NCBI RefSeq assembly: GCF_036365525.1 | Contig: NC_090411.1 | Location: forward strand, 26,672,819-26,736,818 | Direction of reading: 5' to 3' | DNA length: 64,000 nucleotides | Source of the DNA: Heterodontus francisci | Taxonomy: Eukaryota | Shown: positions 5,578-8,555 of the stretch, piece after piece | How positions within the stretch are numbered: position 1 is the first letter of the stretch | Layout of the letters: each line of letters begins with the position of its first letter | Position numbers and translations under genes: made by a program | Notes under the pieces: generated by a model | The model's database searches: none | Told to the model about the DNA's origin: nothing | What the model saw: the letters and a program-made list of their open reading frames with translations, nothing else

Positions 5578-8555
<2,978 letters not shown>

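Follow-up and report, generated by a model that had tools for sequence, protein, structure and literature searches.

What does a ferritin subunit do with metal when four of nine consecutive residues in its helix B are histidines? The question is raised by a locus in the horn shark Heterodontus francisci, for which an earlier note, made from the letters alone, had proposed that the histidines form a lumen-facing patch that takes the place of the acidic nucleation site and could bind zinc, copper or another metal. The window (the whole 64,000-nucleotide stretch analysed) is animal DNA with remnants of LINEs; it contains five intact ferritin genes of four exons each, all on the + strand and spaced 11.8-14.3 kb apart, each encoding a protein of 176 residues: copy 1 at 5578..8555 (exons 5578-5679, 6792-6938, 7501-7626 and 8400-8555); copy 2 at 17347..22117 (exons 17347-17448, 17913-18059, 18749-18874 and 21962-22117); copy 3 at 31677..34808 (exons 31677-31778, 32914-33060, 33712-33837 and 34653-34808); copy 4 at 43467..47691 (exons 43467-43568, 44036-44182, 44872-44997 and 47536-47691); and copy 5 at 57237..60386 (exons 57237-57338, 58475-58621, 59272-59397 and 60231-60386). 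An open frame, GT-AG introns and a poly(A) signal are found in all five, and the layout is that of vertebrate four-exon ferritin genes. Exon 2 alone matches the Pfam family Ferritin (PF00210) at 35.5 bits, against a cut-off of 24.5. The copy 1 protein is identical to the H. francisci record XP_067876093.1 (P0133), and that of copy 4 to a second record from this species (P0134). Tblastn searches of the window with Lys62 and Glu62-array queries returned the 20 known exons only, with no Glu62-type or additional ferritin exon.

Much of the sequence at 15-38 kb recurs at 42-64 kb (15402-38435 versus 41529-64000, a two-gene unit of about 25.6-26 kb, with 95-97% identity over long stretches), indicating that the array grew by a two-gene unit; we attribute this repeat to recent unequal crossing-over, assembly haplotype duplication being a less likely alternative. 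LINE reverse-transcriptase remnants (RVT_1) lie at 19749-20489 and in other intergenic and intronic stretches; one of them is inside intron 3 of copy 2, which measures about 3.1 kb versus 0.8 kb in copies 1, 3 and 5. The coding sequences of the copies differ at only 8-19 bases and pN/pS is 0.10-0.38 (about 0.2) in 10 of 10 pairs: the copies are under purifying selection. Pseudogene status was rejected on the open frames, the canonical splice sites, pN/pS and the spliced contigs described below.

The helix B codons of copy 1 (6849..6875, + strand) specify His57, His58, Ser59, His60, Glu61, Lys62, Gln63, Glu64 and His65 in human-H numbering, which is used throughout; in the protein's own numbering these exon 2 residues are His54-His55-Ser-His57-Glu58-Lys59-Gln60-Glu61-His62. 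The offset between the two, taken from PDB alignment ranges, is +3 without Met and +4 with Met, and with +3 the histidines fall at 57, 58, 60 and 65 and the glutamine at 63, as the earlier note had placed them. Its statement that helix B is the same in every copy also holds (5/5 intact tandem genes). Four histidines within nine residues are rare in ferritins, being found in 4 of the 203 full-length (166-189 residues) sequences compared, all from Heterodontus; at least three occur in 23. The horn shark pattern is one substitution away from human-type H (Gln58 to His) or from frog M (Glu57 to His).

A second feature of the same helix is Lys62. Glu62 binds both of the ferroxidase irons, and His65 is also a ferroxidase ligand. 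The codon for residue 62 (6864..6866, + strand), Glu in catalytic ferritins, encodes Lys in all five copies; the ferroxidase set E27, Y34, E61, E62, H65, E107 and Q141 is incomplete here, with the other residues present, and the copies do not qualify as catalytic H or M chains. The incomplete ferroxidase site described in the earlier note is thereby borne out, and in copy 4 it includes a second ligand change (Glu27Asp, exon 1, 43467-43568). In other sharks, His65 is replaced by Cys, Arg or Tyr in Lys62 copies (7 of all 69 Lys62 proteins); together with Glu27Asp, these changes are consistent with relaxed constraint on a dead ferroxidase site. The codons for Glu107 (7561..7563), predicted to form the salt bridge to Lys62 that L chains have, and for Leu173 of the four-fold channel (8532..8534; His in canonical chains, Leu in L chains and in many Glu62 array copies) are both on the + strand. 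The residues of the mammalian L pair Lys62-Glu107 and Leu173 are thus all present, the bridge itself being predicted; the corresponding marks of L chains are a K58-E103 bridge (L numbering) and Leu169 (PMC2603009). The three-fold channel (H118, C130, D131 and E134) is intact, as had been noted. Glu62Lys has been called sufficient to abolish the activity of FTHL17 (PMC7760355), and E62K combined with H65G kills that of the H chain (PMC6929972). Judged by these residues, the horn shark subunit is very probably ferroxidase-dead.

The residue tally indicates that the conserved signature of these proteins is Lys62, and not the histidines. Among 165 ferritins labelled cartilaginous fish by source names (cluster representatives and listed members with one best alignment each; a non-random set that includes partial and fused gene models and over-represents carpet sharks), position 62 is Lys in 69, Glu in 93 and Asn in 3. 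Within the 69 Lys62 proteins, Glu61 is present in 65, Glu64 in 67, Glu107 in 66 and the channel residues in 65-66; His57 is found in 26, His58 in 9, His60 in 10, His65 in 62, just one of the four in 41 and all four in 5, the last being all from Heterodontus and the only such proteins among the 165. Leu173 occurs in 57 of the 69 (the remaining 12 are not covered at that position) but is not specific to Lys62, since 34/58 Glu62 array proteins share it. The 125 other ferritins compared have Glu62 in 121 cases and Lys62 in 4 (one brachiopod, three unnamed). Gln141Glu was observed in 42/69 Lys62 proteins, from orectolobiform sharks (P0018, P0025 and others); Glu141 is an L-chain-like residue.

In a tree of 71 rows (quick IQ-TREE search, SH-aLRT support only and no bootstraps, mammalian L and FTHL17 left out), 15 Lys62 proteins form one clade (SH-aLRT 99, stem 0.18), whose members come from Heptranchias, Heterodontus, Mustelus, Scyliorhinus, Cetorhinus, Carcharodon and carpet sharks and span five orders (hexanchiform, heterodontiform, carcharhiniform, lamniform and orectolobiform). 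This clade is separate from a larger expanded group in which Glu62 is intact (92) and also from the group of canonical shark chains (94), and its position as sister to the shark Glu62 array has a support of only 81. The Glu62 array includes one Lys62 protein, from Heptranchias, indicating that Glu62Lys can also arise or spread sporadically. None of the ray, chimaera or sawshark proteins listed has Lys62, which is a weak negative. The Glu62-intact expanded group is present in the same sharks, Heterodontus included, whose Glu62 records come from a contig equal in length (39,003,146) to that of the Lys62 records. In the databases, the clusters of Lys62 representatives number 43 and 76 members, and those of the Glu62 array reach 180.

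At the residue equivalent to Arg23 of human H (codon 19, 5632-5634 in copy 1), copy 1 has Gln and the other four copies have Lys. Arg occupies this position in 16/16 canonical shark chains, in 3/69 Lys62 proteins and in 0/58 Glu62-array proteins. In human H this arginine is a contact of NCOA4, which mediates ferritinophagy (PMC11719527, where a catshark ferritin reported in 1952 is also mentioned); to judge from the substitutions, both expanded shark groups may escape NCOA4.

The claim that the L-type nucleation site is lost stands in part: neither position 57 nor position 60 is acidic, the L-type Glu57 and Glu60 being absent, but Glu61, Glu64 and, with them, the His57 triad are kept. Its premise, that both positions are acidic in L and fish M chains, was only partly right: an acidic residue at position 60 is not the rule in the M lineage, frog M having His there, as do 84 of the 93 cartilaginous-fish ferritins of the Glu62 type. 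Salmon M has an acidic nucleation set at 57, 60 and 64 (PMC4117605), where the copies have His57, His60 and Glu64; of the mammalian L nucleation glutamates E57, E60, E61 and E64 they have E61 and E64 only, and human L is reported to nucleate at E60/E61/E64 (PMC12022971). In human mitochondrial ferritin, His57/Glu61/Glu64 hold the nascent mineral cluster (PMC13411386, PMC12022971), mineralisation proceeding at 79 uM/min and falling to 6.9 in E61A and 24 in E64A, but only to 71 in H57A (PMC12022971). A nucleating role for the shark residues is uncertain: two glutamates of the L type, Glu57 and Glu60, are lacking, and human H shows no nucleation at its own His57/Glu61/Glu64 (PMC13411386).

The best PDB matches to exon 2 (this exon only) were bullfrog M/H' (1MFR and relatives; E about 4e-20). 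Frog M shares with the copies His58, His60 and His65 (its own His54, His56 and His61), Glu61, Glu64 and a length of 176 residues, and differs by Glu62 and an active ferroxidase centre, as well as by Glu57, Arg63, Asp144 and His173 where the copies have His, Gln, Val and Leu. Human H and mitochondrial ferritin share His57, His60, His65, Glu61, Glu64 and the three-fold channel residues but have Gln58, Glu62 and Arg63 and are active. Mammalian FTL has in common with the copies Lys62 with Glu107, Leu173, Glu61, Glu64 and an incomplete ferroxidase site; unlike FTL, the copies keep Glu27 (Asp27 in copy 4), Tyr34, His65 and Gln141, have neither Glu57, Glu60 nor an iron-responsive element (IRE), and are multi-copy. 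The horn shark copies are ferritins that are not H or M by their ferroxidase residues and not L by their nucleation residues, and they would be expected to work most like L or FTHL17.

Spliced forms of these genes occur in public contigs of run X1 (presumed RNA), which join exons 2-3 and 3-4 at GT..AG and loose contig ends match the exon 1-2 join; one piece runs across the His codons and differs by one silent change only, and further variants correspond to copies besides copy 1. No Rfam match, to the IRE or to any other family, reached the gathering score anywhere in the window, and no IRE match was found up to E 10 in 5000-5700, where five weak Rfam matches were all far below their gathering scores. 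A TATA-like box and an IRE-loop-like hexamer were located at 5473..5498 (+ strand), the box 105 bases before the ATG and the hexamer 20 bases later; the hexamer lacks an IRE stem in all five copies and is possibly a decayed IRE. In salmon, the H and M genes all carry an IRE (PMC4117605). The Greenland shark ferritin cluster is reported to be ovary-specific (Sahm et al. 2024, bioRxiv 10.1101/2024.09.09.611499), a result given for the whole cluster of that species, with Lys62 copies not separated.

The reading that we favour, with reasonable though far from complete confidence, is that the copies belong to an ancient ferritin subfamily particular to sharks and defined by Glu62Lys, and encode a ferroxidase-dead, L-like partner subunit that would co-assemble with the shark Glu62 ferritins. 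Lys62 would remove the glutamate that bridges the two ferroxidase irons and would pair with Glu107; given this swap and pairing, the subunit would be unable to oxidise Fe(II) fast and would be stabilised like mammalian L or FTHL17. Ions would still be admitted through the intact three-fold channel, with Glu61 and Glu64 kept on the inner surface, and in cages shared with Glu62 ferritins the subunit would be structural and mineral-accepting. The tissue would be one of high output, probably ovary or oocyte as inferred from the Greenland shark preprint, and the Lys62 ferritins would be free of iron-responsive translational control. A wider scenario is more tentative, and we regard it as possible rather than probable: that sharks evolved their own ferroxidase-dead subunit before their major lineages split, independently and through the Glu62Lys swap that mammalian L and FTHL17 also carry, that it was amplified beside the catalytic form with both freed of the IRE and of the NCOA4-binding arginine, and that the pair forms a heteropolymer serving as the iron store of the oocyte or egg. 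If true, the division of labour between catalytic and non-catalytic ferritins arose again in sharks via the same residue, and part of the hundreds of shark ferritins automatically annotated as heavy, middle or light would be a distinct inactive class. The Lys62 subfamily would also serve as a natural experiment on whether the Glu62Lys change by itself suffices for an L-like subunit in the absence of Glu57 and Glu60.

The strongest competitor, which we nevertheless consider rather unlikely, is a ferroxidase-dead germ-line ferritin of the FTHL17 kind with a regulatory or non-iron role (for example, a nuclear one, or as a bulk storage protein of the egg). FTHL17 is intronless. Like the shark genes, it carries Glu62Lys with the other ferroxidase residues largely conserved, and it is reported to have a germ-line association (germ-cell expression in mouse, where it is also multi-copy). 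The window without an IRE match, the ovary-specific Greenland shark cluster and the loss of the Arg23 equivalent in most Lys62 proteins point the same way, although this last change is shared by the catalytically intact Glu62 array. FTHL17 is described as X-linked, mammalian and FTH1-like, with Asp61 and low stability; the copies do not belong to that lineage, having four exons and Glu61 and falling in a shark clade apart from the H-chain group (in the tree built without FTHL17). Against such a role, the three-fold channel and Glu61/Glu64 are highly conserved over five shark orders, which suggests continued metal traffic.

That the copies drift as almost redundant products of array turnover, with Lys62 tolerated and without a role, is quite improbable. 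In favour of this view, expansion of shark arrays is extreme (clusters of 43-180 members), and scattered changes in the active site are seen in many copies of the Glu62 type; against it are the open frames with canonical splice and poly(A) signals in all five copies, their low pN/pS, the single clade with fixed Lys62 across five orders and the spliced forms in run X1.

The histidines themselves are largely ordinary. Three of the four are standard in H-type chains, His57, His60 and His65 being common to sturgeon, axolotl and canonical shark sequences among others; the fourth corresponds to frog M His54, and outside cartilaginous fish His58 was found in two frog M entries (among 125 other proteins). 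His58 is also present in Cetorhinus and Carcharodon and in single Scyliorhinus and Stegostoma proteins. On an idealised helical wheel, a crude construction that is not a cage model, with residue 61 set at 0 degrees, residues 65, 58 and 62 lie at 40, 60 and 100 degrees, and 64, 57 and 60 at 300, 320 and 260 degrees; 58 and 65 therefore adjoin 62 on the ferroxidase side, 57 and 60 are 80-160 degrees off, and no i,i+4 pair exists among the four. A His-rich zinc or copper site would call for converging and conserved histidines, whereas these are on different helix faces and occur together in only 5/69 Lys62 proteins. In human H, the transit site Fe3, next to the ferroxidase centre, is made up of Gln58 and Glu61, and Fe4 of His57 and Glu61 (PMC13411386). 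Crystals show Fe, Mg, Cu and Co bound at frog His54 (table in PMC10114856), and human His57, His60 and His65 are likewise reported to bind added metals in crystals. Some zinc or copper binding at these histidines, as in ordinary ferritins, is thus likely by analogy. Engineered His arrays in helix B gain metal binding and peroxidase-like activity, but with His at 57, 60, 61, 63, 64 and 67, and not at 58 or 65 (PMC12207384; L numbering +4). The identity of the histidines in all five copies is expected, given that these differ at so few coding bases. Most likely, from the sequences compared, Heterodontus alone combines four histidines that H and frog M chains carry separately, and the set is not a purpose-built zinc or copper site. 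The proposal of a dedicated patch, selected for zinc, copper or another non-iron metal in place of the nucleation site, can draw on the restriction of the full set to Heterodontus and on the crystal and engineering results, but with three standard residues, their arrangement on the wheel and a pattern that most Lys62 proteins lack, we find it unsupported and very improbable. The histidine patch alone matters little.

The expansion of shark ferritins and their ovary expression are already known (preprint 10.1101/2024.09.09.611499), as are Glu62Lys ferritins in mammals. The clusters of Sahm et al. (2024) resemble the window in being tandem arrays, with more than 100 ferritin copies in the Greenland and great white sharks; the preprint counts 155 'FTL' and 179 'FTH1' copies in clusters shared with the white shark. 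These labels were given by similarity; the main text does not use the term 'ferroxidase', and no account of a Lys62 subfamily was found there. No description of a shark Lys62 ferritin subfamily was found in the literature searched, most subscription papers and the preprint supplements lying outside its scope.

Two minor observations concern the protein set. At codon 6, all five copies have Cys in place of the conserved N-terminal Arg; this position is Arg in 16/16 canonical shark chains, and Cys in 40 and Ser in 20 of the 69 Lys62 proteins. Two shark-like canonical ferritins, P0012 and P0181, are filed under Aeromonas veronii and Salmonella, probably through contamination or mislabelling.
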